A stretch of 38,403 nt of DNA from the IMG/VR virus record IMGVR_UViG_3300045988_055586, positions 1-38,403 of that record. The stretch is one strand, 5' to 3'. This DNA is from a virus. The notes below the pieces were generated by a model. It was not told the origin of the DNA. It did not search any database and saw nothing but the letters and a program-made list of their open reading frames with translations. Numbering within the stretch: position 1 is the stretch's first letter; every line of letters starts with the position of its first letter. Shown here in pieces: positions 10,722 to 28,596 of the stretch. A program made the position numbers and the translations under genes.

Positions 10722-10958
10722 ATGGCTGAGAAGAAAAAGAGCGAAGTATTCATTCCCAAAAGACCCGGAGACGGGGACCCCAACCTCTATGTGGGGATCA
10801 ACGGAAAAAGCTACCTGATCCCCAAGGGGCGGAAGGTCCTGGTGCCGGAAGAGGTGGCGCAGGAGGTAGCGCGGGCCGCTGCGGCTGAGTCGGCACAGAC
10901 GGAGGAACAGGAGCGCCGGGCCGCAGAGGCTGAGAAAATGTGGGGTGCTCTGAACTGA
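10722..10958 (+). CDS. Hypothetical small head-associated protein
   Basis: 78 aa. Call rests on position after the capsid gene. Confidence 0.5.
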   Translation: MAEKKKSEVFIPKRPGDGDPNLYVGINGKSYLIPKGRKVLVPEEVAQEVARAAAAESAQTEEQERRAAEAEKMWGALN

Positions 10959-10977
10959 GCGGCATCAAATAACACGG

Positions 10978-11010
10978 AGGAGGGAGAGGCGGTGGCTTCT
11001 CCCTCCTTTG
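10978..11010 (+). terminator. Terminator-like hairpin
   Basis: aggagggaga-loop-tctccctcct followed by ttg. The U-tract is short. Confidence 0.4.
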
Positions 11011-11028
11011 GCTAACAGGGAGAAAAAA

Positions 11029-11403
11029 ATGAAAGTACGAGAGGCGATAGAGCTGGCGGACGCTATGCGCCCGAACCAGTTTGATGAATCGGTAAAAATC
11101 AAATGGCTGTCCAAGCTGGACGGAATGCTGTTTGAAGAGATATTCAAAACGCATGAGGGGTGCCCGGCGGAGAGCTTCACGCCATACACGGAGCTAGACG
11201 GGGAGAAAGAGCTGCTGGTCCCGGCCCCCTATGACCAGGATGTTTACAACTACTTTTTGCAGGCGCAGATCGACGCCGAGAACGGGGAAGCGGCGAAGTA
11301 TAACCAGTCTATTACCCTATACAACGCGGCAGCAAAGCTTTTCGGCGACTGGTACAACCGCACGCATATGCCCATCGCGGCGGCGCGGGCACTGCTGTTT
11401 TGA
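11029..11403 (+). CDS. Hypothetical structural protein (possible head-tail adaptor)
   Basis: ATG 11029 follows GGGAGA. The listed ORF starts at TTG 11008, inside the hairpin. The functional call is from position only. Confidence 0.45.
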   Translation: MKVREAIELADAMRPNQFDESVKIKWLSKLDGMLFEEIFKTHEGCPAESFTPYTELDGEKELLVPAPYDQDVYNYFLQAQIDAENGEAAKYNQSITLYNAAAKLFGDWYNRTHMPIAAARALLF

Positions 11404-11416
11404 GAGGAGGGAGACC

Positions 11417-13195: not shown

Positions 13196-13956
13196 TGGAG
13201 ATACGGTTTCCAAACATCTCTCCCGATGCCAGGGCCACAGAGCAGCTGGGGCAAATGCGCAGCTACCTATATCAGCTGGTACAGGATCTAAACCTATCCC
13301 TGAAACAGTTAGAGTCCAAGGACGAGAGTGAAACCACTGAACAGGCGGCGGCAAAAGCTGCCAAAGAGCGGGAGGAACGAAACCAACAAGCGGCGGTGGG
13401 GCTGAAGAGCCTGATCGTGAAAACGGCGGAGACGGTGTCCCGGCAGGTGGAGCAGATGAAGTCGGAGCTGCGGGGGGAATATGTGGCGGTGTCGGACTTC
13501 GGGACCTATCTGGAAAAGACCAGCCAGGAAATTGAGGAGGATCCCGCCAAGATCACCCGGTATTTTAAGTTTGCAGCGGACATCCAGGCGGATGTGGACA
13601 AGGTGGACGCGGACTTTTCCGCCTACAAGACCGATGTGCAGGGGTATATCCGCCAGGGCATCGTGGACTATGACGGGGTGACGCCCATCATCGGCATTGC
13701 CATCGGCCAGGACATCCGCACCACCCAGACCGGGGTGGAGACGGAGCAGGGGGTCTTTGATGTTATAGACAAGCGGAGCAATATGTCCGTGTGGACCACG
13801 GAGAAGCTGTCGTTTTACATCGGCGGCCAGGAGGCGGCCTACTTCTCCAACGGCAAGCTGACGGTGGCCCAGATCGCCACAAATCGCATCACCGGCGCAG
13901 GCGGGTGGGATGTGAGCTTCACCGGGGGCGTGAAATTCAAGTGGATCGGAGGGTGA
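13195..13956 (+). CDS. Coiled-coil tail protein (needle/fibre-like)
   Basis: ATG 13195 overlaps the previous TGA. Central heptad-rich region and a beta-rich C-terminus. Confidence 0.5.
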   Translation: MEIRFPNISPDARATEQLGQMRSYLYQLVQDLNLSLKQLESKDESETTEQAAAKAAKEREERNQQAAVGLKSLIVKTAETVSRQVEQMKSELRGEYVAVSDFGTYLEKTSQEIEEDPAKITRYFKFAADIQADVDKVDADFSAYKTDVQGYIRQGIVDYDGVTPIIGIAIGQDIRTTQTGVETEQGVFDVIDKRSNMSVWTTEKLSFYIGGQEAAYFSNGKLTVAQIATNRITGAGGWDVSFTGGVKFKWIGG

Positions 13957-13960
13957 GAGC

Positions 13961-15799
13961 ATGGGCGAGACCATCAAGACGGATGTGAAATACAAGTCCT
14001 ATTTCTGGGTGAAATGGGAGGTGCAGGAGCAGGATACGGCGTCGAACAAGTCCACCATCGCCTGGTCCTGCGGCCTGAGCCCCGGGGAGCAGTACTATAC
14101 CAATGCCATACGAATGTCGGCGGTGACGATAGGCGGCGTGGAGGTGTACGCCGGAGGCACCTACTCCGACATTACGGACTACAAGGACCGCACCTTCGGA
14201 TCCGGCACCCTGGAGGTGGAGCATGACGGGGACGGCAGCAAGACCCTGGTGGTGGGGGCCTTCTCCGGGTGGCTGTACGGCAACGGGGACTACAACGCCT
14301 CCAGCCGAAGCTTCGCCCTGCCCACCATCCCCCGGGCCACCACGCCCGGTATCGGCGGCGTGACTATAGGGGAGACGGCGCACATTAGCCTGCCCAGAGC
14401 GTCCAGTGGCTTTACGCATACCCTGCGCTATGTGTTCGGCGGGGTGGCGGAGACCATTGCAAGGGGTGTGACCGCGGGCTATGACTGGCTTGTGCCGGAG
14501 AGCCTGGCGGCCCAGATTCCCAATGCGGCCAGCGGCAAGGGCACACTGACCTGCGAGACCTACAGCGGCGGCACCTGCATCGGGACGAAATCGGTGACCT
14601 TTACGGCCTCGGTGCCCGGGAGCATGAAGCCGACGGTTTTGAGCGGCTGGGCGGCGGTGAGCTACGACAACAGCGGCACGGCGGCGGAGAATATGGCTGC
14701 CTGGGTGCAGGGGTATTCCAAGGCCAAGGCTACCTTTGACGCAAGCAAGGTCACCTGCCGGCAGGGGGCCGGGGTCAGCAAGTTTTCCATTACCTACCTG
14801 GGAAAGACCACGGCGGGGAATCCTTGCCGGACGGAGACTATTTCCACCACCGGCGCCACGGTGCGCTGCACGGTGACGGACAGTCGGGGGCTGACGGCCT
14901 GGGAGGATTTCAGCCTTGCGCTGCTGGAGTACGCCCCGCCTGCCCTGGTGGGGGCGGACCTGTTTCGCTCGGACGGAGAGGGCGCGGCGGCGGACGGCGG
15001 GACGCACATTGCCGGGGTGGCCCGGGCCCGGTACTCTGAGCTGGGGGGCCTGAACAGCGTGACGCTGAAGGGCTACTGGAAGAGCGTGGGCGGCGGCTAC
15101 GGAGCGGGGGAGACCCTGACGGTGGGGGCCGTGGGCCTGGTGACGGGGGATGTGGAAATTTCCGCAGACCGCAGCTACATAGCCCTGCTGGTGCTGACGG
15201 ACAGCCTGGGAAACAGCGCCCGCTATGAGGAGAACATCCCCACGGAGAAGGTGGCCTTCCACCTGAAGGAGGGCGGCAAGGGCGCGGCCTTCGGCAAGGC
15301 GGCGGAGACGGAGGGCCTGCTGGAGCTGGCGGAGGACTGGCATCTGAAGCTGACCGGAGCCACGGACCTGAATGCGGCGGCAGAGAAGATCGCCGTGCTG
15401 GACCCGGGAGGCGTGGTACGCTACCGGACGAAGGCGGAGCTGCTGGGAGACCTGGCGGCGGACTACATTGTAGAGCAGGGCGTAAGGGGCATATGGACTT
15501 ACCGGAAATGGGCCGGCGGTATTTTGGAATACTGGGGGAAGGAGCAGGGCTTCACCCTGGAGGACGGATGGCACGGGAGTCCGGCGGCGCCGCTTGCTGT
15601 TGTCAATGCCGAAAATTATACCGTGACGGTGACGAATTGGTACGGCACGGATGATAACCGGGCGGCGCGGGCCAATAGCATTACCTGCGGGGGCTTATAT
15701 GCAAACGGCAGCGTATCCGTATATGACAGAAACCCGGATGGGACCGTCGGGACGGGCTACCGGGCCTACTATTACCATGTGCATGCAAGGTGGAAATGA
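13961..15799 (+). CDS. Tail fibre / receptor-binding-like protein (DUF859-like N-terminal domain)
   Basis: GGAGGG upstream. The N-terminal pattern ...VQEQDTASNKSTIAWS...VTIGGVEV...GSGTLEVEHDGDGSK... is typical of Firmicutes phage fibre proteins. Confidence 0.55.
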   Translation: MGETIKTDVKYKSYFWVKWEVQEQDTASNKSTIAWSCGLSPGEQYYTNAIRMSAVTIGGVEVYAGGTYSDITDYKDRTFGSGTLEVEHDGDGSKTLVVGAFSGWLYGNGDYNASSRSFALPTIPRATTPGIGGVTIGETAHISLPRASSGFTHTLRYVFGGVAETIARGVTAGYDWLVPESLAAQIPNAASGKGTLTCETYSGGTCIGTKSVTFTASVPGSMKPTVLSGWAAVSYDNSGTAAENMAAWVQGYSKAKATFDASKVTCRQGAGVSKFSITYLGKTTAGNPCRTETISTTGATVRCTVTDSRGLTAWEDFSLALLEYAPPALVGADLFRSDGEGAAADGGTHIAGVARARYSELGGLNSVTLKGYWKSVGGGYGAGETLTVGAVGLVTGDVEISADRSYIALLVLTDSLGNSARYEENIPTEKVAFHLKEGGKGAAFGKAAETEGLLELAEDWHLKLTGATDLNAAAEKIAVLDPGGVVRYRTKAELLGDLAADYIVEQGVRGIWTYRKWAGGILEYWGKEQGFTLEDGWHGSPAAPLAVVNAENYTVTVTNWYGTDDNRAARANSITCGGLYANGSVSVYDRNPDGTVGTGYRAYYYHVHARWK

Positions 15800-15813
15800 A
15801 AGAGAGGGCGACT

Positions 15814-16962
15814 ATGGCAACAAAGCTTTGGAGAGGAAACACGGGCAGCTCGGTGCTGGATCTGCAGCAGAAGCTGAACCGGAACGGCTACAGCCTGGAT
15901 GAGGACGGCGTATTCGGCAGCAACACCTATAACGCGGTGCTGGACTACCAGCGCAAGAACAACCTGGCTGTGGACGGCGTGGTGGGGGATGAGACCTGGG
16001 GGAGCCTTGATAAGGTGCAGGCGGCGCAGCGTAGCACGCCGCAGTCTACATACACTCCCTATGACCCGGGGAGCGACAAGGCCTACCAGGCGGCGCTGAA
16101 AAAGCAGCAGGAAGCAGAAAACAGCAAGCCCGGGGAGTATAAGGGGGCTTACGACCAGCAACTGAAGGACATTTACGACAAGATCATGAATCGGGAAAAA
16201 TTCTCCTACGACTTGTCTGGCGATCCGCTGTGGCAGCAGTATAAGGACCAGTACACCCAGAAAGGGCGCATGGCCATGCTGGACACTATGGGACAGGCGG
16301 CAGCCCTCACCGGCGGCTACGGCAGTTCTTACGGCCAGGCCGTGGGGCAGCAGCAGTATAACGCCTATATGCAGCAGCTGGCAGCGGTGATGCCGGAGCT
16401 CTATGACCGGGCCCGCAGCGCCTATGATGCGGAGGGCAACCGTATGCTGCAGGAGTATGAGTTGACGGGAGACCTGGCCAGGGACGACTACAGCAAATAT
16501 CAGGACGCCTACAATCGCTGGCTGGCGGAGCGCAGTTATGCTCAGGGCAACGCGGACACCGCTTACGACCGGGGCTTCAACCAGTGGCTCCAGGAGCTGA
16601 ACCAGAGGAACAAGGACAGAGAGTTTGAGGAGAGTGTACGGCAGTACAACGAGAATCTGGCAGAACAGAAACGGCAGTACAATGCATCATTGGCCAGAAG
16701 GTCTTCCTCGGGCGGTAGCTCTGGGGGAAATGCACCAAAAAAGAAAGCAGCGGAATATGGACCCGGCATTTCTACGCAGAGAAATGTGGCTGGAATAAAA
16801 GGCAGCGGATGGGATTATACCAAGCACACCCTCGAAATGCTGCTGCGAGGGGGAAATGTTAAGGGGGCGGCAAACTACATGGACACGATCGTGGACGAGG
16901 TAAACGAGGGCCAGTACAAGGAACTGGAAAAAATGTGGAAAAATTACGGGCAGTCCTACTAA
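15814..16962 (+). CDS. Peptidoglycan-binding-domain (PG_binding_1-like) virion protein
   Basis: LWRGNTGSSVLDLQQKLNRNGYSLDEDGVFGSNTYNAVLDYQRKNNLAVDGVVGDETW, followed by a Q/Y-rich helical region. Confidence 0.65.
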   Translation: MATKLWRGNTGSSVLDLQQKLNRNGYSLDEDGVFGSNTYNAVLDYQRKNNLAVDGVVGDETWGSLDKVQAAQRSTPQSTYTPYDPGSDKAYQAALKKQQEAENSKPGEYKGAYDQQLKDIYDKIMNREKFSYDLSGDPLWQQYKDQYTQKGRMAMLDTMGQAAALTGGYGSSYGQAVGQQQYNAYMQQLAAVMPELYDRARSAYDAEGNRMLQEYELTGDLARDDYSKYQDAYNRWLAERSYAQGNADTAYDRGFNQWLQELNQRNKDREFEESVRQYNENLAEQKRQYNASLARRSSSGGSSGGNAPKKKAAEYGPGISTQRNVAGIKGSGWDYTKHTLEMLLRGGNVKGAANYMDTIVDEVNEGQYKELEKMWKNYGQSY

Positions 16963-16972
16963 GGAGGCGCAC

Positions 16973-19900
16973 ATGAGTACAAAGGGCAGAGAAAACTGGG
17001 AAAAATACAAGGCTGGGTATGTAAGTACAAGGCTGGCTGAGGAAGTATCCACAGGGAATGCCGGGAGAGACAGCTGGAACGAGCTGAAAAAGACGATTCG
17101 ATTTGATAAGCCCGAGAGCACACAGAATGTGGCCTCGGGCAGCGGCGCACAGAAGGACAAAAAGTTCGACGCCGGACAGTACGCCGAGGATGCCGGGAAG
17201 CTGTTTCTAAACGGCGTGGTAGAAGGTGTCGCGGCAACGGGAGCAGCGGTGGAAAACTGGATCGGAAAGGGACTGGATAAGCTGTTCCCCGGCGCCGGAT
17301 TTGAGGGCAGCGGACTTTTCAATGTGCTCTATAATGGCCGTCCTGACTGGAAGTGGGCAGGAGAAAACGGCCTGGTGGGCATAAAGCAGGACCGGGAATA
17401 CAATCAAGCATCCTTGCAGGAAAACGCCGAGCGCATTGACGGAAAGGCAATGAAAAAGGCTGCAGAGTTCGGCGGAGACATCGCCTACGGACTGGGCAAT
17501 GCTGCACCTATGGCGGCGACAGCAATGGTGACCGGCGGCGCGTCAGCGGCAGCTGCGCTTACCAAGGAGGGATTGCTGAAAACGGGCGCGGAGGTCGTAG
17601 AAAAGTCGGGTGTCCTCAACTCAATGAGCCAGGCCGCACGAGATATGCTGACCAGCCGAGACTACTGGACGAGCTTTGCCTCCGAAGTGGGTATGGACTA
17701 CTACGACGCCCTGGATAGCGGCGCCACAGAAGACGAGGCCCTGCGATACGCGCTCTCCTCGGCGGGGATCAACTCCGTTATTGAAATCGGCGGCGGTATT
17801 CAGAGGATCCCCGAAAAACCTACCTTCAGGACCTGGCTGAAATCGGCCAACGAGGAAGGTATGGAGGAAATCCAGCAGGGGATCGTGTCCCGGCTGCTGG
17901 AGAATGTGGTCTACAACAAGGGGAACTCCATCGCGTCCGTCACGGACGAAAACGCGGTACTAAACCCCGTGACCGCGCTGGGCGAATACGCCGGCGGTGC
18001 AGCGGTGGGCGGAATCCTATCCGGCGGGCAGCAGCTGACCCAGCGAGGAATCAGTAATGCGCAGTATAAGAGGGCCTATAACCGAGGCATACAGGAAAAC
18101 GGCGTCACCGGGGCCAAGTACAACGCGGAGACCGGGAAGCTGGACGCCATCGTGAAGGACGATCAGGGCAAAATCAAAACCGTTCCGGCGGAGAAGGCGG
18201 AGCTTTCGCCGCTCCAGGAGGAACTATTCGACTGGGCGACAGATCTGGGCGAGGCTGGGCCGGTGCTGGTGAGCGCATACCGACAGACGCAGAACCTGGA
18301 AACCTACGCCCGGCAGTTCCACAATGCCTATGAATACGGCAAGGCAGGCGTGCCTATGGACTATGTGAATAAGTCCCAGGCGGTGAGCTATCTAAACACC
18401 ACTCAGCGGGAAATTGCCTACGAAGAGGGCGCAAAGGCACACCAACGGGAGCTGCAGGGCCGCCAGGAGAGGATGCGGTCCGGCGGGACCGTGGACACCA
18501 CTGCACGGAAAAAACCCGCTGTGAGCCTGCGAGGGGCCACGGTGGGAAGCGTAAAGTATGCACCGGTGAACAAGAAAGCCATGGATGGCCGACAGTGGGC
18601 CTCCGTGGGCACCATGAAAGCCTTTGCCCAGGCCACGGGAGTGAATGTGGTATTCTATGAGAGCCAGGCTAACGAGCGAGGCGAATATGAGGGTGCCAAC
18701 GGATTTTACAAGAACGGCACCCTGTATCTGGACATCAACGCCGGACGGGACCGGGTGGCGATGGGGGAGACGGCCATTTTGAAAACTGCCGCCCACGAGA
18801 GCACCCACTACATCAAGGAGGGCAGCCCGGAGCAGTACGAGGTGCTGAAAAACTTCGTTGTGGAAAAGTTGACCCGGGAGAAGGGCATCAGCTTTGACGA
18901 CCTGGTGACGGACAAGCAGCGCCGGGAGCCGGGGCTCTCCTACGAGGAGGCCGTGGACGAGGTGGTGGCTGACGCCTGCGAGATGATGCTCAAAGACAGC
19001 AAGGCGGTGGAGCAGCTGGCCCGGGAGAACCGCAGCCTGGCTGAGCGCATTCGCCAGTGGATCCGAAAGTGGGTGAGGAGCCTGAAGGCCGCCATGGAGG
19101 GCCTGACGGCAGACCGGCAGGAGAGCCGCGCCATGATGCAGTACGCCCAGGAGCTGCAAGAGATATGGGACAACGCCCTGGTGGATGCTGTCAGGAATGG
19201 CCGGGGTGTTGGAACCGGAAGGGCACAGTATTCCATCCGCGTCGTGGACGGAGAAACTATGACTGTGTTGGACACGGAAAATGATACCCGTAGCTTTGAT
19301 GCCGCCGAGAAATATCTGAAGGCACTGGTGGACACGAAGCACCCGTTTGCCACAATTCTTGCAGATGCACAGCCGGTCTACATTGGAAAGGATCTGCCGG
19401 GCGAGTATAGAAGCTCTGAATACACAAAGGGTATGGAGGCTAAACTGCGTCCGGTAAAAATGCAGGCCGCAACAAACCTTGACGAAATGCTGCTCCTTGC
19501 CGAGAACGGCGAATGGCGCGAGAATGTGAAAGACAAGCACAAAACTGATGCTCAAAATGGGTGGTACCGCTATGATGCACGATTCGAAGTACCGATTCTG
19601 AACGAAAAGAAGGCCGTAGACCATTACACGGTTTACGGCGGAACGCTTCTGATTCGCAATGACGCAGACGGAAAATCCTATTTGTACGACCTTGTGGACA
19701 TAAAAAAAGAGAAGAGAATCAGCACAGCCTCCTTCTCTGCCCGAGGGCATTCGGAGGTATTGGCGCCAAAACCTTCTCAACAACAGTATATGCAGGAGCA
19801 GAAGAAAAGTCAAGAAAAAAGTAATGAAAAAAGTAATGAAAAAAGTAATGAAAAAGTGCAGTTCTCCATGCGGGAGCCTGTGGAGGAAACCCGCGACCTA

Positions 19901-22900
19901 ATAGCACTGCACAACATGACGCTGGACAACCTACGGGGAGCCCTGAAGCTGGGCGGCCTGCCCATGCCCAGCATTGCCATCGTCAAGGCAAAGAGTGGAC
20001 ACGATCAGTATGGCCCGATCTCTCTGGTTTTCAGAAAGGATACTATTGACCCGCAGCTGTTCCGCAGCAACAAGGTGTATGGCTATGACGCATGGACGCC
20101 GACTGCGCCCCGCATTGAGTATGAAGTCAATGAAAAGGCGGCAGACAAGCTGCGTGAACTATATTACAGAATGCAGCGGGAAAAGGGCCGCGATTTCGCA
20201 GCTCCATTGTACTCTGTGGCAAACACGCTGGAGGACGAGTTGAACAACAAGGGGGGACTGGATAAGGTTGTTGATACGATGCGAGATGACACGCGCATCA
20301 TGCAAATTTATCTGGAAGACACGGGCGCTGGCTCTGTGGCAAATGTTATGCGGAAAAATGTGTCGCGTATGAGTGAAGGCGAAATCGAAATGGCACAGGC
20401 GTTGACGGAAAAGCTGGGTGAAAAGACAATCCAAAGCATCAGCGCACAGACGGGAGAATCGCCGTTTTCTGCAAGACGCCGCTGGTTTGCAAAGTATGGA
20501 GAGGCTGTAAATGATGCGCTGACTGCATATTACGAGCAGGAGGGTATACCTCATGAGGAAGCTCTGCGCGCAGTGGAGGCTGAGACAACAGCCAACAAGA
20601 TCAAGAGCGTGCTGCTTGCAAGAAAGTATCTAAACGGAAACGCTGAGGTTATAACGGAGGAGGTGGACCGGGAGGCCACAGACAAGGCAATCCGGGAGAA
20701 GGTTAATCAGGATTCGTATGACCAGTGGTTGGAGGGCCTGTTTTCCGGTGTGGTGAAAAATTCCGGCATTTACAACGGAAAAGATTACTACACAGCTTCC
20801 GGTAATCGGAGAAGTTTTTCTGCAACCCATTATGAAGTCAATCTGGAAAACACTGTGCGGGCCATGAAGCAGGGCGACCAGACTGGCGTGGGAACATTCT
20901 TTGGCGGACAGGCAATCTGGGGCGTAACCGCAAAGGATTACAGGTCCATAGAGGAAATTAAAGAAGACTCCGGACGGCTGCAGAAGCTATCAGAAGAAGA
21001 ATACAGCCAGATTCGCCAGCAATTCACAGAGAGGCTGGCAAACATCACCAGCGAGATCATGGACAAGAATAACGGGAACGAGTTCACCGCTTCGGACGAT
21101 GCGGCGAGTGCCATTGTGGAAACACTGCGAACCAAGCATACCGTGAAAGCAATCGACAAGGAGCTGCGCACCTATCCGACCCTGCACATTCAGCCGGACA
21201 CGGCGCAAAAGGTGTTTGATTTGTGCCGGGACATTTCCAATATGCCAACGGGCTATTTCGAGGCAAAGCCGCAGCGAGCAGTTGGATTTGACGAGGCGGC
21301 GGCTGTGGTGGTGCCGGACAACCTGCCCGCAGATTTGCGGAAGGGGCTGGAGCAGATTGGCGCAACGGTACGAGAGTACAAGGCAGGAGACGAGCAGAGT
21401 CGGCTGGAGGCCGTGAATGCCGATGAGCGGGTGCGGTTCTCTCTGCGTAGTGTACCCCCTGTAAAGCCCAAAAATGGGGGTTGGGAACGAGGAGCAACTT
21501 TCGATGAAGTGAAGACTGAACACCCAACATTATTTGCTCTCGATGCGGATGAATCGAGTACAAGGAATCCAACTCAGATATCGGGAACCGTAAAAAGTTA
21601 TAGAAAAATTTTCGATGCGCTGAAAGAGGAGGGGTTTGACGGAACAATTCTTGATGCGAGCTCCGGGCTCGGATATGGCACACGCTTAGGCCGAGAAGAA
21701 TATGGGTATAGAGTAGATGACATTGAGCCGTTCCCGGACGCGAAATATAAACCAAGATACACGGACTATTCTGCTCTGGATAATACTTACGATGCGATTA
21801 TAAGCAACGCCGTTCTGAATGTTATACCGCAAGATTTGCGGGATGCAATGGTTGTCAAAATAGGCGAGCTGCTGAATCCGGGCGGGCGAGCATTTATCAA
21901 TGTGCGTGGCACTGATGTTAAAAATGCCAGCAGCAAAGTGGCAATCAACGAAAGTGGAATGGAGTATTTCATATCCAATACGGGCAGCTATCAGAAGGGG
22001 TTCACGACGAAAGAATTAGTTGCATATCTACGGGACGCGCTTGGAGACGGGTTCACGGTGCGGGCTACAAACAAGTTCGGAGCAGTAAGCGCTATTGTAA
22101 CCAAAAACGAAGAAAGAGCGCAATCCCAGCAGCGGGAGCCGCGCCTATCGGATCGGGCCGTGCTGGAGTGGGCGGCGGAGATGGCGCTGCGGGACAAAAA
22201 CAAGAGCTGGACGGCGGAGGACCGGGAGCAGCTGGAGCGGTTCCGCAACCGGATGCGTATGCTGCAAGACACCCAGGCGGAGCTGGAGGCCCTGAAGGAG
22301 GAGCGAAAGGTCCTCCTGGCCGGGCGGAAGGTCTCGGAGATCAAGGGTGAGGAGCGGGTCGAGGTGACCAAAAACAAGAACCGCATCGACATCGCCAAGA
22401 ACAAGGCGGAGCGCTACGAGGCGGCGGTGTGGGAGCTGGAGTCCAAGACGGCCATCAAGACTCTGCTGAAGAAATCCCGCAGAATTGTGGAAACCGAAGC
22501 GTCCGACCAGGCCCGGAAGGAATATCGGGAACGGCAAGAGGAGCGGGAAATGGTGAATGTTACCCGGCGAAAGGTGGAGCGAAACGCCAAGCGCCTGCTG
22601 GAGTACATGAACACCAATACCGACAAAAAGCACATACCGGAGGCCCTGAAAAAGCCTATCGGGGAGCTGCTGGAATCGCTGAATTTCTACTCCAATTCTG
22701 CCCGCAGGGGCGGCTACACCAGCCGGGCAGACCTGAAATACTACGAGGCCATGCAGGGATTGCAGGCCGCGCTGGCAACGCAGCGAGCATTTGAAGACAC
22801 CGGGGAAGGCACGGATGTATTCAAGGGATATTTAGACCTTCCGGCGGGATTTGAAAGCCTGCTGGCCGTCCATGTAGAGCGGGTAAAAAATGTCGTAGAA

Positions 22901-25474
22901 AAGCACCCACTTAAAACCGATGTCTTAAGAATGATGGACCTGGGAGACCTGAGGGATTTGGATGTGATCCTGTCTGTGATGAGCCGCAGTGTGACGAAGA
23001 TGAACGAAATGTTCATAAAAAGGCGGTTTGCCTATGTGGCGGACGCGGCAGAGGATTCCATCATCGCCATGCAGCGCCTGGGACAGCACCAGGATAAGCC
23101 CGGAGAACGGTTTGCTCTGTGGGACAATACGCTGCCCTGGTACGCCTTCCAGCGCTTCGGCGAGGGCGGCAAGGCGGTGTTTGAGGGGCTGCAGGACGGA
23201 TGGGACAAGCTGGCCTTTAACATGAAGACAATCCGCGACTTTAGACAGAGCCTCATAAGCGATGCACTGGCCCGGAAATGGGACACAGAGACCCACAAGG
23301 TGGAGCTGACGGACCCGGACGGGTCCGCGGTGACGGCCACGCTGACGACGGCACAGCTCATGAGCCTCCGGTGCCTGTCCAAGCGTAAGCAGGCCCTGGG
23401 CCATCTCCTGGGCGGCGGCATAAGACCGGATGCCATCGAGATAACAAACACCCTGGGCGATAAAATCAAAAAGAAGAAGTGGAACCAGGACAAGCAGTTC
23501 AAGCTGACGGAGGGATCCCTGGGGCAGCTGCTGAAGCTGCTGACACCGGAGCAGATCAAGGTGGCGGACGCCATGCAGAAGTTCATGACCGAGCAGGGGT
23601 CCGCCTGGGGTAATGTGATAAGCATGGAACGCTTCGGGTATCGGGCATTCACGGAGCAGAACTATTTCCCCATCGAAACGGATCGGCAGGACCGGGAGGC
23701 GAAAACCGGAGATGCCAAGGAGGGCAGCCTGTATAGGCTACAGAACATATCGGCAGTAAAGCCGCTGGTAAAGAATGCCAACAATGCGCTGATCCTGCGG
23801 GGCATCTTCGATGTGTTTGCAAACCACACGGCGGATATGGCAAAGTATAACGCTATGGTGCTGCCTATCATAGATGCTCAGAAGTGGTATAACTACCGAT
23901 ACGGTGAGAAAAACGAGGCAGGTCAGGTGAACACCAGGACCGTGCAGCGTGCCATGACCAAGGCCTACGGAGAAGTGGCTAACAACTTCGTTATCAAGTA
24001 TTTGCAGGACCTGAATGGAGTAAAGGAAAACGGCGACCGGGGCGACACCATCCCCAAGCGGATGATCTCCAACTATAAGCGGGCCATGGTGGCCGCCAAT
24101 ATGCGCGTGGCCCTCTTACAGCTGACGGCCTATGCGCGGGCCTCGGCGGTGCTGGACTACAAGTACCTGGCAAAAGCGTTCACGGACAAGACCGGCACTA
24201 AGCAGGCCACGAAGGAAATGATGGAGAACAGCGGTATTGCTCTATGGAAAAGCCTGGGGTTCTTCGACACCGATGTGGGCCGCTCCATCCGCGACCAGAT
24301 CAAGGGCAAGAGCAGCAAAATCGATGATCTTGTGGACAAAACTATGGTTCCGGCGGAAAAAGGCGATGAAGTGACCTGGGCGCGGCTGTGGCGTGCCTGT
24401 AAGCTGGAGGTGCAGGACAAGCAGCATCTGACAGGGGAGGAACTGCTGAATGCAACAGCGGAGCGGTTCCGGGAGGTTATCTATCGGACGCAGGTAGTAG
24501 ACTCCACTATGACCCGAAGCCATACCATGCGTGGGAGCGGGACCCTGACCAAGATGGCCACCAGCTTTATGAGCGAGCCCACGGTGAGCTACAACATGGT
24601 GATGGAGTCCACACGGCAGATCGCGGAGGACGCCAAGCGTATGGGACTGCGCACGGCCATCCGGCGGAACTGGAAAACGGCTGGGCGGGCCTACCAGGCA
24701 TATATCGTATCGGCCATTGTGACGGCCATAGTGGAATCGCTCTATGACGCCCTGCGGGATTCAGACGACGACAAATACCTGGACAAGGTGTGGAAAGCTC
24801 TGGGTGGAGAAAAGCCGGAGACGGTGAAGGATGGGATTCTGGATGTGATCTTTGGCCTGAACGGAAACCTTGCGGGGGATATTAACCCCATCGGGAAGGT
24901 GCCGTACCTGCGGGATGTGGTGAGCATCCTCGGCGGCTACAGCAACGGGCGCATGGACACGGAGGCCGTGGCAAACCTGAAAAAAGCAATCGACATCTGG
25001 GACGAAGTGATCCGCTTGCAGACCGGAGACCTTGACAAGGCTACCAAGACCACCTACTACGGCAATATGACCACCTATGGGATGATCTATCCCACCGCTA
25101 AGGCGCTGTCACAGCTTACGGGGCTGCCGGGATCGGCGGCTATGCGCGAAGCGGCTACGGCGTGGAATACAACGGTGGGGACGGTGTGGCCGGCACTCAA
25201 AATGCGTACCTACGAGGATAAAAAGCTCCGGGAGGCCTGGGAGAACTACGGCAAGGACTCTGGTGTGAGCTATGCGGTCATGTACCGAGCTATCCAGGAT
25301 TTGAAGGAGATTGAGAGTGACCGGGACGCCGACGGAAACGCCATTAGCGGATCCCTGAAGGCGAAGTATGTGGAATATATTCGCGGAATGGGCCTGACGA
25401 GGGCGCAAGAAAAGGCTGTGTGGGAGGCGGCGAAGAATTCCTCCTGGAGCGACAAAGGGACCCCGTGGGGGTAA
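16973..25474 (+). CDS. Giant polyvalent virion/ejection-type protein (2,833 aa) with zincin metallopeptidase-like and SAM-methyltransferase domains
   Basis: AAGGAGG upstream of ATG 16973. HESTH at nt 18794-18808 (aa 608-612) in LKTAAHESTHYIKEG. MTase motif I ILDASSGLGYGT from nt 21647 (aa 1559), then DDIEP, AIISNAVLNVIP and LLNPGGRAFINV. Long coiled coils. Uninterrupted ORF. Confidence 0.85.
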   Translation: MSTKGRENWEKYKAGYVSTRLAEEVSTGNAGRDSWNELKKTIRFDKPESTQNVASGSGAQKDKKFDAGQYAEDAGKLFLNGVVEGVAATGAAVENWIGKGLDKLFPGAGFEGSGLFNVLYNGRPDWKWAGENGLVGIKQDREYNQASLQENAERIDGKAMKKAAEFGGDIAYGLGNAAPMAATAMVTGGASAAAALTKEGLLKTGAEVVEKSGVLNSMSQAARDMLTSRDYWTSFASEVGMDYYDALDSGATEDEALRYALSSAGINSVIEIGGGIQRIPEKPTFRTWLKSANEEGMEEIQQGIVSRLLENVVYNKGNSIASVTDENAVLNPVTALGEYAGGAAVGGILSGGQQLTQRGISNAQYKRAYNRGIQENGVTGAKYNAETGKLDAIVKDDQGKIKTVPAEKAELSPLQEELFDWATDLGEAGPVLVSAYRQTQNLETYARQFHNAYEYGKAGVPMDYVNKSQAVSYLNTTQREIAYEEGAKAHQRELQGRQERMRSGGTVDTTARKKPAVSLRGATVGSVKYAPVNKKAMDGRQWASVGTMKAFAQATGVNVVFYESQANERGEYEGANGFYKNGTLYLDINAGRDRVAMGETAILKTAAHESTHYIKEGSPEQYEVLKNFVVEKLTREKGISFDDLVTDKQRREPGLSYEEAVDEVVADACEMMLKDSKAVEQLARENRSLAERIRQWIRKWVRSLKAAMEGLTADRQESRAMMQYAQELQEIWDNALVDAVRNGRGVGTGRAQYSIRVVDGETMTVLDTENDTRSFDAAEKYLKALVDTKHPFATILADAQPVYIGKDLPGEYRSSEYTKGMEAKLRPVKMQAATNLDEMLLLAENGEWRENVKDKHKTDAQNGWYRYDARFEVPILNEKKAVDHYTVYGGTLLIRNDADGKSYLYDLVDIKKEKRISTASFSARGHSEVLAPKPSQQQYMQEQKKSQEKSNEKSNEKSNEKVQFSMREPVEETRDLIALHNMTLDNLRGALKLGGLPMPSIAIVKAKSGHDQYGPISLVFRKDTIDPQLFRSNKVYGYDAWTPTAPRIEYEVNEKAADKLRELYYRMQREKGRDFAAPLYSVANTLEDELNNKGGLDKVVDTMRDDTRIMQIYLEDTGAGSVANVMRKNVSRMSEGEIEMAQALTEKLGEKTIQSISAQTGESPFSARRRWFAKYGEAVNDALTAYYEQEGIPHEEALRAVEAETTANKIKSVLLARKYLNGNAEVITEEVDREATDKAIREKVNQDSYDQWLEGLFSGVVKNSGIYNGKDYYTASGNRRSFSATHYEVNLENTVRAMKQGDQTGVGTFFGGQAIWGVTAKDYRSIEEIKEDSGRLQKLSEEEYSQIRQQFTERLANITSEIMDKNNGNEFTASDDAASAIVETLRTKHTVKAIDKELRTYPTLHIQPDTAQKVFDLCRDISNMPTGYFEAKPQRAVGFDEAAAVVVPDNLPADLRKGLEQIGATVREYKAGDEQSRLEAVNADERVRFSLRSVPPVKPKNGGWERGATFDEVKTEHPTLFALDADESSTRNPTQISGTVKSYRKIFDALKEEGFDGTILDASSGLGYGTRLGREEYGYRVDDIEPFPDAKYKPRYTDYSALDNTYDAIISNAVLNVIPQDLRDAMVVKIGELLNPGGRAFINVRGTDVKNASSKVAINESGMEYFISNTGSYQKGFTTKELVAYLRDALGDGFTVRATNKFGAVSAIVTKNEERAQSQQREPRLSDRAVLEWAAEMALRDKNKSWTAEDREQLERFRNRMRMLQDTQAELEALKEERKVLLAGRKVSEIKGEERVEVTKNKNRIDIAKNKAERYEAAVWELESKTAIKTLLKKSRRIVETEASDQARKEYRERQEEREMVNVTRRKVERNAKRLLEYMNTNTDKKHIPEALKKPIGELLESLNFYSNSARRGGYTSRADLKYYEAMQGLQAALATQRAFEDTGEGTDVFKGYLDLPAGFESLLAVHVERVKNVVEKHPLKTDVLRMMDLGDLRDLDVILSVMSRSVTKMNEMFIKRRFAYVADAAEDSIIAMQRLGQHQDKPGERFALWDNTLPWYAFQRFGEGGKAVFEGLQDGWDKLAFNMKTIRDFRQSLISDALARKWDTETHKVELTDPDGSAVTATLTTAQLMSLRCLSKRKQALGHLLGGGIRPDAIEITNTLGDKIKKKKWNQDKQFKLTEGSLGQLLKLLTPEQIKVADAMQKFMTEQGSAWGNVISMERFGYRAFTEQNYFPIETDRQDREAKTGDAKEGSLYRLQNISAVKPLVKNANNALILRGIFDVFANHTADMAKYNAMVLPIIDAQKWYNYRYGEKNEAGQVNTRTVQRAMTKAYGEVANNFVIKYLQDLNGVKENGDRGDTIPKRMISNYKRAMVAANMRVALLQLTAYARASAVLDYKYLAKAFTDKTGTKQATKEMMENSGIALWKSLGFFDTDVGRSIRDQIKGKSSKIDDLVDKTMVPAEKGDEVTWARLWRACKLEVQDKQHLTGEELLNATAERFREVIYRTQVVDSTMTRSHTMRGSGTLTKMATSFMSEPTVSYNMVMESTRQIAEDAKRMGLRTAIRRNWKTAGRAYQAYIVSAIVTAIVESLYDALRDSDDDKYLDKVWKALGGEKPETVKDGILDVIFGLNGNLAGDINPIGKVPYLRDVVSILGGYSNGRMDTEAVANLKKAIDIWDEVIRLQTGDLDKATKTTYYGNMTTYGMIYPTAKALSQLTGLPGSAAMREAATAWNTTVGTVWPALKMRTYEDKKLREAWENYGKDSGVSYAVMYRAIQDLKEIESDRDADGNAISGSLKAKYVEYIRGMGLTRAQEKAVWEAAKNSSWSDKGTPWG
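19814..19856 (+). repeat. 12-bp tandem repeat (gaaaaaagtaat x3 plus a partial unit) encoding (EKSN)n linker
   Basis: Read directly from the sequence. Encodes QEKSNEKSNEKSNEKV inside the giant ORF. Confidence 0.9.
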
Positions 25475-25480
25475 AAGAAA

Positions 25481-25513
25481 AACAGGCTCTGCCATATGGT
25501 GGGGCCTGTTTTT
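25481..25513 (+). terminator. Intrinsic terminator after the giant gene
   Basis: aaacaggc...gcctgttt stem with an inner ctgcc-atat-ggtgg extension, followed by a ttttt tract. Confidence 0.7.
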
Positions 25514-25759
25514 ATATTCCCAAACGATTGGGAATTTGCGCAAAAATAATTGGAGGGGGAGGGGAGAAAAGACCCGGGGCGGACCTGTATAATGAGAGCG
25601 ACGAAACACAAGGAGGGGAGTGTCGGATGAAAAATCTGCCTATCACGGTGGAGGCTCTGCGCCCGGTAGCAGGGGTAAAGATTATGAAGTAAAAGGGCCG
25701 CTGGAAGTAACCCAACGCCGCAAAGCATCCAAGCCCCAGAGGAGAAAGGAAATTACTGA

Positions 25760-26014
25760 ATGGAAACAATCGTCGTGGCTATCATTACCGGCGGCCTGTC
25801 GCTGCTGGGGGTAATTATCACCAGCAACAGGACCACCCGGGAGGTGCAAGCCAAGCTGGACAAGCAGCAGGCCGTAACAGAGACCAAGCTTGAAGAGCTG
25901 ACCCGAGAAGTCCGGGAGCATAACAACTTTGCCCGGCGCGTGCCGGTGCTGGAGGAGCAGATCAAGGTCGCCAATCACAGGATAGCGGATCTGGAAAGAT
26001 TACCCAACCACTGA
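25760..26014 (+). CDS. Membrane-anchored coiled-coil protein (BhlA/UviB-like topology)
   Basis: N-terminal TM segment IVVAIITGGLSLLGVIIT followed by a charged coiled coil. 84 aa. Confidence 0.5.
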   Translation: METIVVAIITGGLSLLGVIITSNRTTREVQAKLDKQQAVTETKLEELTREVREHNNFARRVPVLEEQIKVANHRIADLERLPNH

Positions 26015-26048
26015 GCATCGCAAATCTAAAGTATGAGGAGGGATATGT

Positions 26049-26354
26049 ATGTATCGAGGTACGACCCCCACACTGACATTCCAGCTGCCAATCGACACGG
26101 GGAGCATCACAGCGCTGTCCGTTGCCGTGGCACAGGCCGGACAGGTTAAGATCGAAAAAACATTGCCGGATGTACATCTGGACGGGAATGTTGTCTCCTG
26201 CACGCTGACGGAAGCCGAGACCCTGTCGCTTACTGCCGGGACAGGCGGAATTGACGCAAAGATACAGCTCCGTGTGGGCGTTGGGGCGCAGCGCATGGCA
26301 TCCCAGATATTCACGGTGCCTGTGGAGCGTATTCTCCGGGATGGTGCGCTATGA
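26049..26354 (+). CDS. Hypothetical small tail-associated protein
   Basis: GAGGAGGG 7 nt upstream. 101 aa, beta-rich. Confidence 0.5.
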   Translation: MYRGTTPTLTFQLPIDTGSITALSVAVAQAGQVKIEKTLPDVHLDGNVVSCTLTEAETLSLTAGTGGIDAKIQLRVGVGAQRMASQIFTVPVERILRDGAL

Positions 26355-26626
26355 TCGAGTTTGCGGTAACTTTTTCTCCCGGCGCTGACCTGGAGGTGGA
26401 GTTCGCGGAAAATGTGCCCCTGGATGTTGATATGGGCCAGGTGATGGAGGTTCCCACGGCACCGGCCTATGTTGGCGAGTACGAGGTTGTCCCGAAAGTG
26501 TACACCGAGCAGACCCTACCCACCAGCGGAAAGCTACTGGGCAGAGATGTTTTGGTTCACAAAATCCCGCAGTTTGAGGTCAGCAACGGCAGCGGAGGTA
26601 AAACATTGATTATTGGAGAGGAGTAA
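26351..26626 (+). CDS. Hypothetical small tail-associated protein
   Basis: ATG overlaps the previous stop. 91 aa. Confidence 0.5.
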   Translation: MIEFAVTFSPGADLEVEFAENVPLDVDMGQVMEVPTAPAYVGEYEVVPKVYTEQTLPTSGKLLGRDVLVHKIPQFEVSNGSGGKTLIIGEE

Positions 26627-26630
26627 GAAC

Positions 26631-27218
26631 ATGGCAAATCAGTATGTAAACAAGGTGGTTGTCGGAGCTGAGGTAAAGCTGGACTTGTCCCAGGACACCA
26701 TCAGCCCGGACAAGTTGGCGAAGAACATCACCGCCCACGACAAGTCCGGTGCGCCCATCGTAGGCACTAGCACTCTGGATGTGGATTCCTCCGACGCCAC
26801 AGCGGCGGTGGCGGAAATCCTGAAGGGCAAGACAGCCTATGCGCGAGGCACAAAGCTGACCGGCACCATGCCGGACAACGGCGCCGTGGACGGCCAGATC
26901 ACAACAGTGGAGGAGAAGTATACCATTCCCACCGGTTTCCACGATGGCAGCGGCACGGTGCAGATTGACGCCACCGAGCAGGCGAAGATCATTGCCAAGA
27001 ACATCCGGGAGGGTATTACCATCCTGGGCGTGACTGGCACCATGAGTGGCAACGAGGGCATGAAGCCTCAGGCTAAGACGGTGACGCCTACATTTAGCCA
27101 GCAGGTGGTGTCCCCGGACGCATCCTATAACTGCCTGTCTCAGGTGACGGTGGGTGCCATCCCCGTGGCCTATGTGGACAACGCTGCAGGCGGGCAGACG
27201 CTGACGATTGGAGCGTAA
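26631..27218 (+). CDS. Tail fibre-like protein, paralogue 1
   Basis: GGAGAGGAG upstream of ATG 26631. N-terminus MANQYVNKVVVGAEVKLDLSQDT...ITAHDKSGAPIVGT is shared with the next gene. Repeated G.T..G..LTGTM motifs. Confidence 0.6.
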   Translation: MANQYVNKVVVGAEVKLDLSQDTISPDKLAKNITAHDKSGAPIVGTSTLDVDSSDATAAVAEILKGKTAYARGTKLTGTMPDNGAVDGQITTVEEKYTIPTGFHDGSGTVQIDATEQAKIIAKNIREGITILGVTGTMSGNEGMKPQAKTVTPTFSQQVVSPDASYNCLSQVTVGAIPVAYVDNAAGGQTLTIGA

Positions 27219-27219
27219 T

Positions 27220-28320
27220 ATGGCCAACCAGCATGTAAACAAGGTCGCCGTCAACGGGAAAACCGTCCTTGACCTCTCAGGCGATACCGTGTACCCGGGG
27301 ATGCTGGCCAAGGGCATCACTGCTCACGACAAAAGCGGCGCACAAATCACGGGCACCCTGGAGGTGCCTGCTACCGAGGAGCGGATGGTGGAGCTGTCTA
27401 TGCCCTCTGGCAATCAGGTCATCCTGCCCACCAGCGGCAAGGTCATGAGCAAGGTTACAGTGCAGAAACCGGACACCCTTTTGCCCGAGAACATCAAAAA
27501 GGCTGTGGTGATCGGCGGCGTGACCGGCACCCTGGAGGCTGGCGACACAAGCGAAACCTGGATAATTAAGGATAATGCTCCGGTTAATGAGGATTCTTAT
27601 GAGCTTGCAAAAACGAACATTTCCTTTGCGAGTGGAGAAGCGAAATTTGTGGCGCTTGAAGTTTACACAGATGATGTTGTTATTTGGCTGAAATATTATA
27701 CCACCGCTAATAGGGTCATCGAAGTCGGTAGTTTTGAACCAGGAATGGGTGAAGATAAGTTTTACTGGCCAAATAGTGCATACAAAAAACTCACCTTCGA
27801 CACCCCTCCCACCGGCGCTCTGCTCACATGGCTACAATCGAACGCTACTAAGCAGACCTCCGGCGTCTCTGTGCAAGACACCAAGGCGCTCACTATCACC
27901 ACCAACGGCACTGTATCAGTCACACCCGATGTGCCGTATGACGCGCTGAAGAAGGTAGATGTGACAGTTGATGTGGCGAGTGGTGGGGGCGGTGGAGAGA
28001 CAACATCGCTAGAAGTGAAGACGGCAGGGGACGGTGTAGAGGCTGCCCTGTTTTGCCTTTGGCAAACAAGCGATGGCTGGATGGGGACATCTAATTTTGA
28101 CACTGCGACAAGCTTTACGATCCCCAATGTGATTGTCGGAGGATATGTTATCTTTACGCATGCCCCTGCAGCACAATCGTATTTTGAGGTTTATCGTGGG
28201 GAAGGGGTGGAGAGCTTTTCTGTTGATGCAATGGACTCAGAATGGGATGTCGCAGATGCAGCGCTGGTTATAAAGGTCACCGCCCCATCACCAAGTTTTT
28301 TCCTCAACCTAAGAACTTAA
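27220..28320 (+). CDS. Tail fibre-like protein, paralogue 2 (divergent C-terminus)
   Basis: N-terminus MANQHVNKVAVNGKTVLDLSGDT...ITAHDKSGAQITGT. An AT-richer block at about 27540-27800. Confidence 0.6.
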   Translation: MANQHVNKVAVNGKTVLDLSGDTVYPGMLAKGITAHDKSGAQITGTLEVPATEERMVELSMPSGNQVILPTSGKVMSKVTVQKPDTLLPENIKKAVVIGGVTGTLEAGDTSETWIIKDNAPVNEDSYELAKTNISFASGEAKFVALEVYTDDVVIWLKYYTTANRVIEVGSFEPGMGEDKFYWPNSAYKKLTFDTPPTGALLTWLQSNATKQTSGVSVQDTKALTITTNGTVSVTPDVPYDALKKVDVTVDVASGGGGGETTSLEVKTAGDGVEAALFCLWQTSDGWMGTSNFDTATSFTIPNVIVGGYVIFTHAPAAQSYFEVYRGEGVESFSVDAMDSEWDVADAALVIKVTAPSPSFFLNLRT

Positions 28321-28377: not shown

Positions 28378-28596
28378 ATGAAGAAGAATTGGAAACAGTG
28401 GGTAAAGGCCGCCGCCGTGCGCGCCGTCAAGACCGTGGCACAGACCGCCGTGGCCACCATCGGCACCAGCGCCGTAATGGGCGAGGTGAACTGGGTGATG
28501 GTGGGCAGCGCCTCTCTGCTGGCAGGCATCCTGTCCCTGCTCACCAGTGTGGCGGGCCTGCCGGAGGTGGATGAAGGGGGTAACGACAATGCCTAA
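28378..28596 (+). CDS. Holin
   Basis: 72 aa with two hydrophobic segments (AVKTVAQTAVATIGTSAV and VMVGSASLLAGILSLLTSVAGL). The 3' end overlaps the endolysin start. Confidence 0.7.
   Translation: MKKNWKQWVKAAAVRAVKTVAQTAVATIGTSAVMGEVNWVMVGSASLLAGILSLLTSVAGLPEVDEGGNDNA

Follow-up and report, generated by a model that had tools for sequence, protein, structure and literature searches.

A giant predicted polyvalent protein with a conserved frame and an exchangeable effector cassette, encoded within the virion module of a 38-kb phage genome

Results

A giant gene with a conserved frame and a replaceable centre

The DNA analyzed here, called the window, is the 38,403-nt stretch covering positions 1–38,403 of the viral record IMGVR_UViG_3300045988_055586 in IMG/VR, and the subject of this work is a giant gene within it. 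The gene is an uninterrupted open reading frame (ORF) on the plus strand at 16973–25474, stop codon included, which encodes a protein of 2,833 residues (316.6 kDa). It takes up 8,502 of the 38,403 nt of the window, or 22.1%, in agreement with an earlier note made from the sequence alone, which had put the share at about 22%. Direct reading of the sequence reveals a perfect Shine-Dalgarno sequence, AAGGAGG, at 16961–16967 (+), 5 nt before the ATG and overlapping the stop codon of the preceding ORF. A search with the whole protein yielded 853 homologues, and the best 120 of these are 1,660–3,070 residues long and come mostly from contigs of ~40 kb. Judged by its relatives, the ORF is far beyond chance, because besides the 853 whole-protein homologues there are 3,718 cluster representatives for its C-terminal domain alone. 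A near-identical protein of 2,829 residues (P0001) is encoded on a metagenomic contig of 38,391 bp, and the window is therefore probably a whole phage genome.

BLAST coverage among the best 120 homologues divides the protein into a conserved frame and a variable centre. The frame consists of residues 1–745 and residues 1719–2833, both of which are present in essentially all of these homologues. Between the two parts lies a variable effector cassette (residues 746–1718, 19208–22126 (+)), of which residues 750–950 are found in about a third of the homologues, residues 950–1500 in 20, and residues 1500–1700 in ~10.

The replacement of the cassette is visible at the nucleotide level when the window is compared with a relative, L088, that is 98% identical to it. 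The two sequences share 98.0% identity over window positions 6973–18079, 98.9% over 18074–19206, and 97.3% over 22126–27569; no nucleotide similarity is detectable over 19207–22125, which corresponds to residues 746–1718. The difference between the two genomes is a clean, recent cassette replacement. A comparison of homologous giant genes for domain swaps had been proposed in the earlier note, and it bears such swaps out: the cassette of L088 is wholly different, and 121 proteins, clustered by their central blocks, sort into 49 architecture classes, with cassettes of 167–1,023 residues and only five members in the class of the window protein. In close homologues the same slot contains ART-PolyVal (PF18760), LPD23 (PF18838), MuF_C (PF18819), or LPD3 (PF18798), and DnaJ and ADPrib_exo_Tox also occupy it among the homologues. 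MuF_C was met only as a cassette module of relatives.

Modules of the cassette

The cassette of the window protein starts with module M1 (residues 746–962, 19208–19858 (+)), which ends in a low-complexity linker with (KSNE)x3. M1 was found in only 22–23 of the 270 homologues collected. The earlier note had compared the segment NGWYRYDARFEVP...YLYDLVDIKKE (residues ~870–920) with barnase/EndoU-like toxins, and this label has to be dropped. Pfam, NCBIfam, and the PDB gave no match to M1, and a relation to MuF_C was rejected as well, with E = 0.31 for the hhalign comparison with MuF_C modules. The linker, which lies upstream of PBECR5, is encoded by three copies of a 12-nt tandem repeat, AAAAGTAATGAA, at 19805–19852. 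A copy-number difference in this repeat could be the reason that P0001 is 4 residues shorter.

The second module is PBECR5, a predicted endoRNase (residues 962–1163, 19856–20461 (+)) that matches PF18814 with E = 3.1e-59 and 201.2 bits against a cut-off of 25. Here the earlier note had described a conserved module FS.R...LIALHNMTLDNL...GGLPMPSIAIVK without assigning it to a family. Its conservation is confirmed, but the module does belong to a family, as it is an actual PBECR domain. Among the homologues, H980 and S1000 are invariant in 21 of 21, T1042 in 20 of 20, and D1026 in 20–21. PBECR RNases have an active site of a His plus a Ser/Thr, according to Iyer et al. 2017 (PMC5512222), and at the sequence level the invariant residues fit such a site.

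PBECR5 is accompanied in 21 of the 21 loci that contain it by an extension of ~320 residues (residues 1164–1487, 20462–21433 (+)), which begins with PFSAR. The extension has no PDB match; Acinetobacter phage Ab9 and Bacteroides phage BF1-TP2 have it too.

The last module (residues 1488–1716, 21434–22120 (+)) is a predicted class-I S-adenosylmethionine methyltransferase of the Methyltransf_23 type. The motifs on which the earlier note had based this assignment are present at residues 1559–1570 (ILDASSGLGYGT), 1582–1586 (DDIEP), and 1633–1644 (LLNPGGRAFINV). Homologues of the module (35–77% identity) carry PF13489, and LDASSGxGxGT, D..EP, and IISNAVLNV.P are invariant among them. R1623, R1645, E1664, Y1673, and Q1674, which correspond to columns R134, R156, E175, Y184, and Q185 of alignment A5, are conserved too. 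A DPPY-type motif is absent, as had also been stated: there is no [DNS]PP[YFWH] motif IV anywhere in the giant protein, nor a PC catalytic motif in the protein or the module, and a DNA amino- or C5-methyltransferase is therefore unlikely. The module is present in only ~10 of the 120 close homologues, and its PDB methyltransferase matches are only weak. Matches confined to it were found in Roseobacter, Mycobacterium (Myrna gp97), and Microcystis phages, and the one weak match in a PADLOC search for defence proteins (mad2, E = 0.005) is located at the methyltransferase motif.

Residues 946–1717, spanning PBECR5, the extension, and the methyltransferase, are matched colinearly by PHROG 22978. With this match, and with similar ORFs of ~8 kb noted elsewhere, the earlier view that the domain combination is uncharacterised proves too strong.

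A junction motif at the module borders

A short motif, [FY]-S-[MLIVA]-[RK], occurs in five copies in the giant protein, all of them in the cassette at module borders. The first copy (motif at residue 753) is part of QYSIR (residues 752–756, 19226–19240 (+)) and is situated seven residues past the end of the frame, in a linker with a low predicted local distance difference test score (pLDDT). The other copies mark the end of the M1 core (residue 921), the start of PBECR5 (QFSMR, 19859–19873 (+), motif at residue 964), the start of the extension (PFSAR, residue 1165), and the start of the methyltransferase module (RFSLR, 21434–21448 (+), motif at residue 1489). A degenerate junction, QSQQR (residues 1717–1721, 22121–22135 (+)), is found at the start of the C-terminal part of the frame, and the right-hand crossover with L088 falls within it. 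The degenerate junctions at this place read RFQQRE, QSQQRE, or QNSMRE and are followed by PRLSDRAVLEW.

The density of the motif in close homologues is 1.97 per 1,000 residues in the cassettes compared with 0.07 in the frames. For 102 distant representatives, 60 copies were observed against 20.5 expected from shuffled sequences, with 0.09 per 1,000 residues in the frames; the motif there has the context [KRQ]-[FY]-S-[LMVI]-[RK]-[DE] and follows sequence rich in D/E/N/G. The linkers recur in front of different modules. SNEKV precedes PBECR5, the methyltransferase, or another module, and ADERV precedes the methyltransferase 7 times and the C-terminal frame 9 times.

DNA repeats at the module borders were considered as recombination substrates and rejected, since there is no repeat family at the borders and the microhomology amounts to only ~10 nt. 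As the microhomology is so short, the conservation of the junctions is at the protein level. It is also unlikely that the motif is integral to the PBECR5 fold, as phage Ab9 has a PBECR5 module without it.

The N-terminal frame contains a zincin-like domain

The N-terminal region (residues 1–375, 16973–18097 (+)) is predicted to be helical, with a pLDDT of 25–50. It is rich in Gly and Ala, as the earlier note had described, with 27.5% Gly+Ala over residues 61–380 compared with 18% for the whole protein. An EGxEE motif (residues ~294–299) and several invariant Gly/Glu columns are kept among distant relatives (alignment A4). Some relatives have ~300 additional residues or a different N-terminal stretch of 60–680 residues, so that the N-terminal region is itself replaceable. 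A second variable site is situated at residue ~370 (window ~18075–18085), where the window protein does not have the ~124 residues (415 nt in L088) that are present in most relatives. Two short (K/A)AY repeats flank the site, and the stretch between them was apparently deleted.

The core of the N-terminal frame (residues 376–745, 18098–19207 (+)) is predicted with a confident fold (pLDDT 85–95) and holds a putative zincin-like metallopeptidase. The HESTH motif pointed out in the earlier note is found at residues 608–612 (18794–18808), and Glu663 is encoded at 18959–18961. Relatives of 24–45% identity all keep H608, E609, and E663, while the conservation of H612 is at least 90%. In the AlphaFold2 model a helix (539–555) is followed by three strands (558–562, 578–580, and 583–587), the HExxH helix (602–617), and a helix carrying the Glu (657–668). 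This arrangement matches the layout of the zincin metallopeptidase (MPTase) described for polyvalent proteins by Iyer et al. 2017 (PMC5512222). The zincin region is common to ~113 of 150 distant representatives, and the score against a Wss1 profile is weak (E = 0.05).

The C-terminal frame represents a large unannotated phage family

The C-terminal frame (C-frame, residues 1719–2833, 22127–25471 (+)) consists of a charged helical stalk, a mainly α domain of ~950 residues (C-domain, residues ~1800–2750), and a last piece of ~77 residues. It is 63–100% identical in all 120 close homologues. In the part that the earlier note had put down as ~300 residues of coiled coil, residues 1716–1960 contain 34% E/K/R, and AlphaFold2 predicts two long helices within residues ~1801–1881. 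The model of the C-frame is almost all α-helical, with a pLDDT of 75.9 and a predicted template modelling score of 0.72. Dozens of polar residues are invariant in the C-domain, for example in WGN, H..D, DxNG, K, N.R, QV.D, EP, and R-D-D-D.

An exhaustive phmmer search with residues 1950–2833 gave 3,718 cluster representatives (50% identity) at E ≤ 1e-3, of which 2,710 are below 1e-30. Among the 150 matches listed, most are 2,000–4,800 residues long with the domain at the C terminus, and ~30 are shorter and probably truncated. Residues ~1800–2750 are common to 150 of 150 diverse representatives. The earlier note had left the C-terminal third without a family, and indeed no Pfam, PHROG, or NCBIfam model matches the C-domain. 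A Foldseek search against BFVD yielded 83 matches at E ≤ 1e-3 (best 2.9e-44). Those listed are mostly second or third chunks (_2/_3) of large proteins of uncultured phages, and their names come from other domains: MuF-C, nuclease, PolyVal ART, LPD, and acetyltransferase. The C-domain consensus had no match in 72,556 plasmids and, as judged from these sequence searches, the family is phage-restricted. The C-domain was also considered as an RNA polymerase, a T7-type core protein, a portal, or a MuF protein, and these candidates were rejected for want of a PDB fold match.

In distant relatives a third variable site is present just before the last ~77 residues. These (residues 2756–2832, 25238–25468) form a separate conserved piece, which an insert separates from the C-domain in the distant relatives. 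An acidic loop within this piece, DRDADGNAISGS, resembles a calcium-binding loop, and one BFVD match is named EF-hand domain-containing protein.

The giant gene and its partner keep their place in the virion module

The gene directly upstream of the giant gene (15790–16962 (+)) encodes a protein of 390 residues with an N-terminal PG_binding_1 domain (PF01471, E = 3e-17), followed by a Q/Y-rich region. The conservation of this peptidoglycan (PG)-binding partner was followed in 84 loci with a C-domain, 80 of them from IMG/VR, on contigs mostly of 35–45 kb, and 4 from GTDB genomes. In 64 of the 84 the PG-binding protein had a detected homologue, encoded directly upstream of the giant gene in nearly all cases. 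Two gene orders occur. In the order of the window, the genes for the major capsid protein (MCP), the 654- and 254-residue proteins (g654 and g254), and DUF859 precede the PG-binding gene and the giant gene. In the other order, TerL, portal, Prp, and in some cases a tail gene precede the pair, and scaffold and MCP follow it. The pair thus lies within the virion module in both gene orders. In eight more distant loci (L003, L004, L036, L037, L053, L054, L058, and L068) a block of the PG-binding and giant genes, with or without DUF859, is relocated between portal/Prp and scaffold/MCP, a position that is the usual slot of genes for MuF-type minor head proteins.

Upstream of the giant gene in the window lie, in order, TerL (4816–6219) and portal (6223–8142), followed by the Prp cysteine protease (8139–8471, PF04327, 58.9 bits), which is located between the portal gene and a scaffold-like gene (8547–9509). 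The MCP gene (9506–10663) is followed in order by those for the 654-residue protein (PHROG 511), the 254-residue protein, and a 612-residue DUF859 tail protein. A cleavage motif of the L27-like type for Prp is present at the start of the scaffold-like protein (MKDFLWLQIFA/EGE, 8547–8610) and of the MCP (YKMNLQMFA/DAG, 9536–9590). Processing of the giant protein by Prp is unsupported, as the protein contains no Q-x-F-[AS] or LQ.F site.

Immediately 3' of the stop codon of the giant gene, at 25478–25513 (+), the sequence is predicted to form a strong hairpin (−24.4 kcal/mol, z = −5.9), with an A-tract on one side and a U-tract following it. The structure resembles an intrinsic terminator that would end the structural operon; a simple consensus terminator scanner made no call on it. 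Farther downstream are small genes and an endolysin gene of the Amidase_3/CW_7/SPOR type. Two Amidase_3 (N-acetylmuramoyl-L-alanine amidase) genes are present, one at 28547–29446, with the wall-binding domains CW_7 and SPOR, and one at 31845–32417. The endolysin of L088 is of the Amidase_2 type, in contrast to Amidase_3 in the window. Near the right end are two adjacent DNA methyltransferase genes (35234–36046, PHROG 67, and 36043–37938, PHROG 116), which are separate from the methyltransferase module of the giant protein. At 2429–3184, a protein of 251 residues has a below-threshold match to the rolling-circle family REP_ORF2-G2P (24.9 versus 27.8 bits).

The relative L088 encodes a P22-type portal, a holin, and a serine recombinase, and the phage group is therefore considered temperate and podovirus-like. 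Related prophage and phage contigs are assigned to uncultured Clostridiales, Clostridia, and Oscillospiraceae. No close relative was found among 50,697 deposited phage records (INPHARED).

Discussion

By its repertoire of several unrelated effector domains, as read from the sequence, and by its virion-gene context, the giant protein is a polyvalent protein. The earlier note had reached the same reading, and it is strengthened by the combination of PBECR5, by its Pfam name a phage nuclease domain of this kind, with a zincin and a methyltransferase, by homologues that swap ART-PolyVal, MuF_C, LPD3, and LPD23, and by the fixed place in the virion module. We consider it probable that the protein is virion-associated, packaged, and ejected, and that it belongs to a ~38-kb podophage of temperate type that infects gut Clostridia (Oscillospiraceae-like hosts). 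The argument for a virion role is mainly one of association, as it is made because the PG-binding and giant genes stay inside the virion module in both gene orders. An effector made from a late operon would be useful to the next infection only if it were packaged, and by analogy with other phages the giant protein may be delivered with the DNA.

The division of the protein suggests how such a delivery could proceed. The frame, made up of the Gly/Ala-rich N-terminal region, the zincin core, and the stalk with the C-domain, would bring the protein into the capsid and later, along with the DNA, out again through the tail. In the newly infected cell the payload (residues 746–1718) would then act on RNA-based or other defences of the host before phage genes are expressed, with PBECR5 acting on RNA and the methyltransferase on a substrate other than a DNA base. 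Payload modules are swapped between near-identical phages by recombination, with crossovers at or next to the junction motif. The junction may further be a cleavage site of the built-in zincin, which would cut at the junctions and free the modules. It is conceivable, if rather doubtful, that the junction motif is both the zincin cut site that frees the effectors and the seam for module exchange and that, separately, the C-domain is a module for capsid anchoring or ejection, so far unrecognised, in podophages that infect Gram-positive gut bacteria.

Several observations weigh against this explanation. The zincin region of the window protein has no Pfam MPTase match; PF18818 is matched by 1 of 16 relatives, weakly (E ~1e-3), and Tox-MPTase2 by 2 of 16 (E = 0.015). 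Foldseek gave no significant metalloprotease match for the zincin either, the best being aureolysin at E = 2.4. For the N-terminal frame the best Foldseek match in the PDB has E = 1.0, with a template modelling score (TM) ≤ 0.11, and there is no likeness to T7 gp14–16 or another solved structure; for the C-domain nothing was found in the PDB (best E = 0.25, TM ≤ 0.11). The N-terminal domain of MuF proteins (Phage_Mu_F) was not detected by Pfam in the window protein or in 16 diverse relatives. The protein contains no canonical transmembrane helix, its Kyte-Doolittle maximum being 1.53 against a threshold of 1.6, and the methyltransferase module scores PF13489 at 23.5 bits (E = 5e-5), under the cut-off of 27. 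The junction motif is weaker in distant relatives, and its role in cleavage is one that we purely infer. The C-domain consensus matches no cultured phage in INPHARED. Homology of the C-domain to LPD38 of phage phi24B gp47, a giant virion protein discussed below, was considered and found unsupported: hhalign gave P = 0.13 and hmmsearch E > 0.03, with a DLNGV...NYK...AANMRVA match as the only recurrent, weak one, and no PF18857 (LPD38) match was obtained in the window protein at E ≤ 10.

The protein might instead be mainly a structural ejection or conduit protein, stored in the capsid, that together with the PG-binding protein extends the short tail across the Gram-positive wall and membrane, its enzymes being accessory or acting on the envelope. 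Such a role has been proposed for phi24B gp47, and it would account for the pairing with a gene for a peptidoglycan-binding domain and for the large, helical, conserved frame with its Gly/Ala-rich N terminus; moreover, the most hydrophobic helix (residues 2576–2594) is situated in the conserved C-domain, adjoining the invariant R-D-D-D acidic cluster. We nevertheless regard it as unlikely, because the RNase, methyltransferase, and ADP-ribosyltransferase domains of the payloads have cytoplasmic targets, there is no cell-wall hydrolase domain in the window protein or 16 diverse relatives, and neither a fold likeness to solved ejection proteins nor canonical transmembrane segments are present. 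A conduit role would also be compatible with a packaged polyvalent protein. Less probable still is a late cytoplasmic multi-enzyme that is not packaged, and that in the producing cell or from the prophage modifies progeny nucleic acids, shuts down the host, or excludes competitors. The family does lack a proteomic record, the phage encodes other modification enzymes in its two DNA methyltransferase genes, and relatives are temperate, as the serine recombinase of L088 indicates. A cytoplasmic enzyme, however, would have no need of a conserved non-enzymatic frame of ~1,900 residues or of an invariant place inside the head and tail blocks across two gene orders. Its gene is also predicted to be translationally coupled to the upstream gene of the structural module, and plasmids lack the C-domain, although conjugative elements often encode polyvalent proteins.

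The great length and helix-rich nature of the protein, the neighbouring tail gene (DUF859), and the internal variable region would all suit a tape-measure, tail-fibre, or receptor-binding protein whose variable centre switches host range. There is very little to recommend this, given the podovirus-like gene set with a P22-type portal in a relative and no tail-tube or sheath family matched among the structural genes scanned. The variable part consists of enzymes and not of β-rich binding domains, and conservation is highest at the C terminus, the reverse of what receptor-binding proteins show. No tape-measure or fibre family was matched by Pfam, and the catalytic motifs of PBECR5, the zincin, and the methyltransferase are intact. 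Hardly credible, finally, is a virion RNA polymerase in the C-terminal ~950 residues, of the kind known from N4 gp50 and from crAss-like phages with their giant proteins. The layout of a giant virion protein with an MPTase does resemble N4 gp50, and many acidic and basic residues are invariant, R-D-D-D among them, but no PDB match with E < 0.25 and TM > 0.1 was obtained with Foldseek, no polymerase family was matched in Pfam or NCBIfam, and the predicted fold is almost wholly α-helical.

If the packaged polyvalent protein is injected as proposed, the cassette would constitute a natural, fast-reshuffled library of first-strike effectors from phages of gut Clostridia, in which M1, the PBECR5 extension, and the methyltransferase are candidates with defined boundaries, each for a role in anti-defence or host takeover. 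A model of the frame, with its 3,718 clusters, would improve the annotation of many ~40-kb phage genomes from gut and rumen. The junction motif provides a concrete handle on whether and where polyvalent proteins are processed, a question that Iyer et al. 2017 did not settle.

Comparison with known systems

Polyvalent proteins are multi-effector proteins of phages and conjugative elements, and for Helicobacter jhp1044 as many as 50 domain combinations are described by Iyer et al. 2017 (PMC5512222). Like members described there, the giant protein is predicted to combine a PBECR RNase with a zincin-like MPTase and a methyltransferase on one polypeptide. Its relatives share the ART-PolyVal, MuF_C, and LPD domains with them, and the virion-gene context and mosaic orthologues are alike. 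It differs from them in that its frame is outside all Pfam models, including the LPD models that matched relatives in the same scans.

N4 gp50 and P1 DdrB contain an MPTase that, according to the same source (PMC5512222), has been suggested to process the protein or, in N4, to be located in a region needed for encapsidation. Both N4 gp50 and P1 DarB/DdrB belong to the giant or large proteins that travel in the capsid and enter the cell with the injected DNA. The giant protein differs from them in lacking an RNA polymerase, a helicase, and the fold or motif of a DNA methyltransferase, and in having no sequence similarity to them.

Proteins of comparable size are known from several phages. ORFs of ~8 kb have been reported for the prophages phi1 and phi4 of Clostridium clostridioforme LM41 (PMC11318856), which are likened to the giant gene by ORF size, and in these prophages as well as in Ab9 one ORF makes up ~20–22% of the phage genome, as in the window. 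Ab9 (PP763254, L087) is a cultured Acinetobacter phage of 38.7 kb. Its 2,839-residue "hypothetical protein" (13372–21891) takes up 22% of the genome, directly follows a gene annotated as "endolysin" that encodes 773 residues, and shares PBECR5 and the extension with the giant protein. Over the 2,331 of ~2,839 residues compared, BLAST similarity is significant in PBECR5 and the extension only, no junction motif is present, and the score with the zincin profile is weak.

The best precedent for delivery with the DNA is gp47 of the Stx phage phi24B (HM208303, 49148–57571). This protein of 2,811 residues contains LPD1/5/38, MuF-C, and metallopeptidase domains and is abundant in virion proteomics; it was unresolved by cryo-electron microscopy, and a role as an encapsidated ejection protein has been proposed for it (bioRxiv 10.64898/2026.04.10.717836). 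Like the giant protein, gp47 has ~2,800 residues, is the product of a gene that closes the late region in a short-tailed temperate phage, and carries HExxH motifs and MuF_C/LPD modules. The LPD38 family to which it belongs, made up of giant proteins from proteobacterial podophages, has a conserved C-terminal domain behind swapped ART-PolyVal, Methyltransf_23, GNAT, RadC, and lysozyme modules. One proteobacterial member (P0382) has Methyltransf_23 and an MTS domain before LPD38, so that one type of methyltransferase module circulates in both families of giant proteins. The differences are that the two C-terminal domains have no significant sequence relation, that the hosts of the gp47/LPD38 family are Gram-negative (proteobacterial) and not Clostridia, and that gp47 has one copy only of the junction motif.

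Polyvalent proteins as such (Iyer et al. 2017), giant ORFs of ~8 kb in C. clostridioforme prophages, phi24B, and Ab9, and the mosaic orthologues of Helicobacter are thus already known. The available part of Iyer et al. 2017 (PMC5512222) contains no mention of a plan of frame and cassette with a junction motif. What is new here, in comparison with these systems, is the delineation of a large unannotated frame family, the nucleotide-level proof of cassette replacement, the PG-binding partner gene, and the junction motif.

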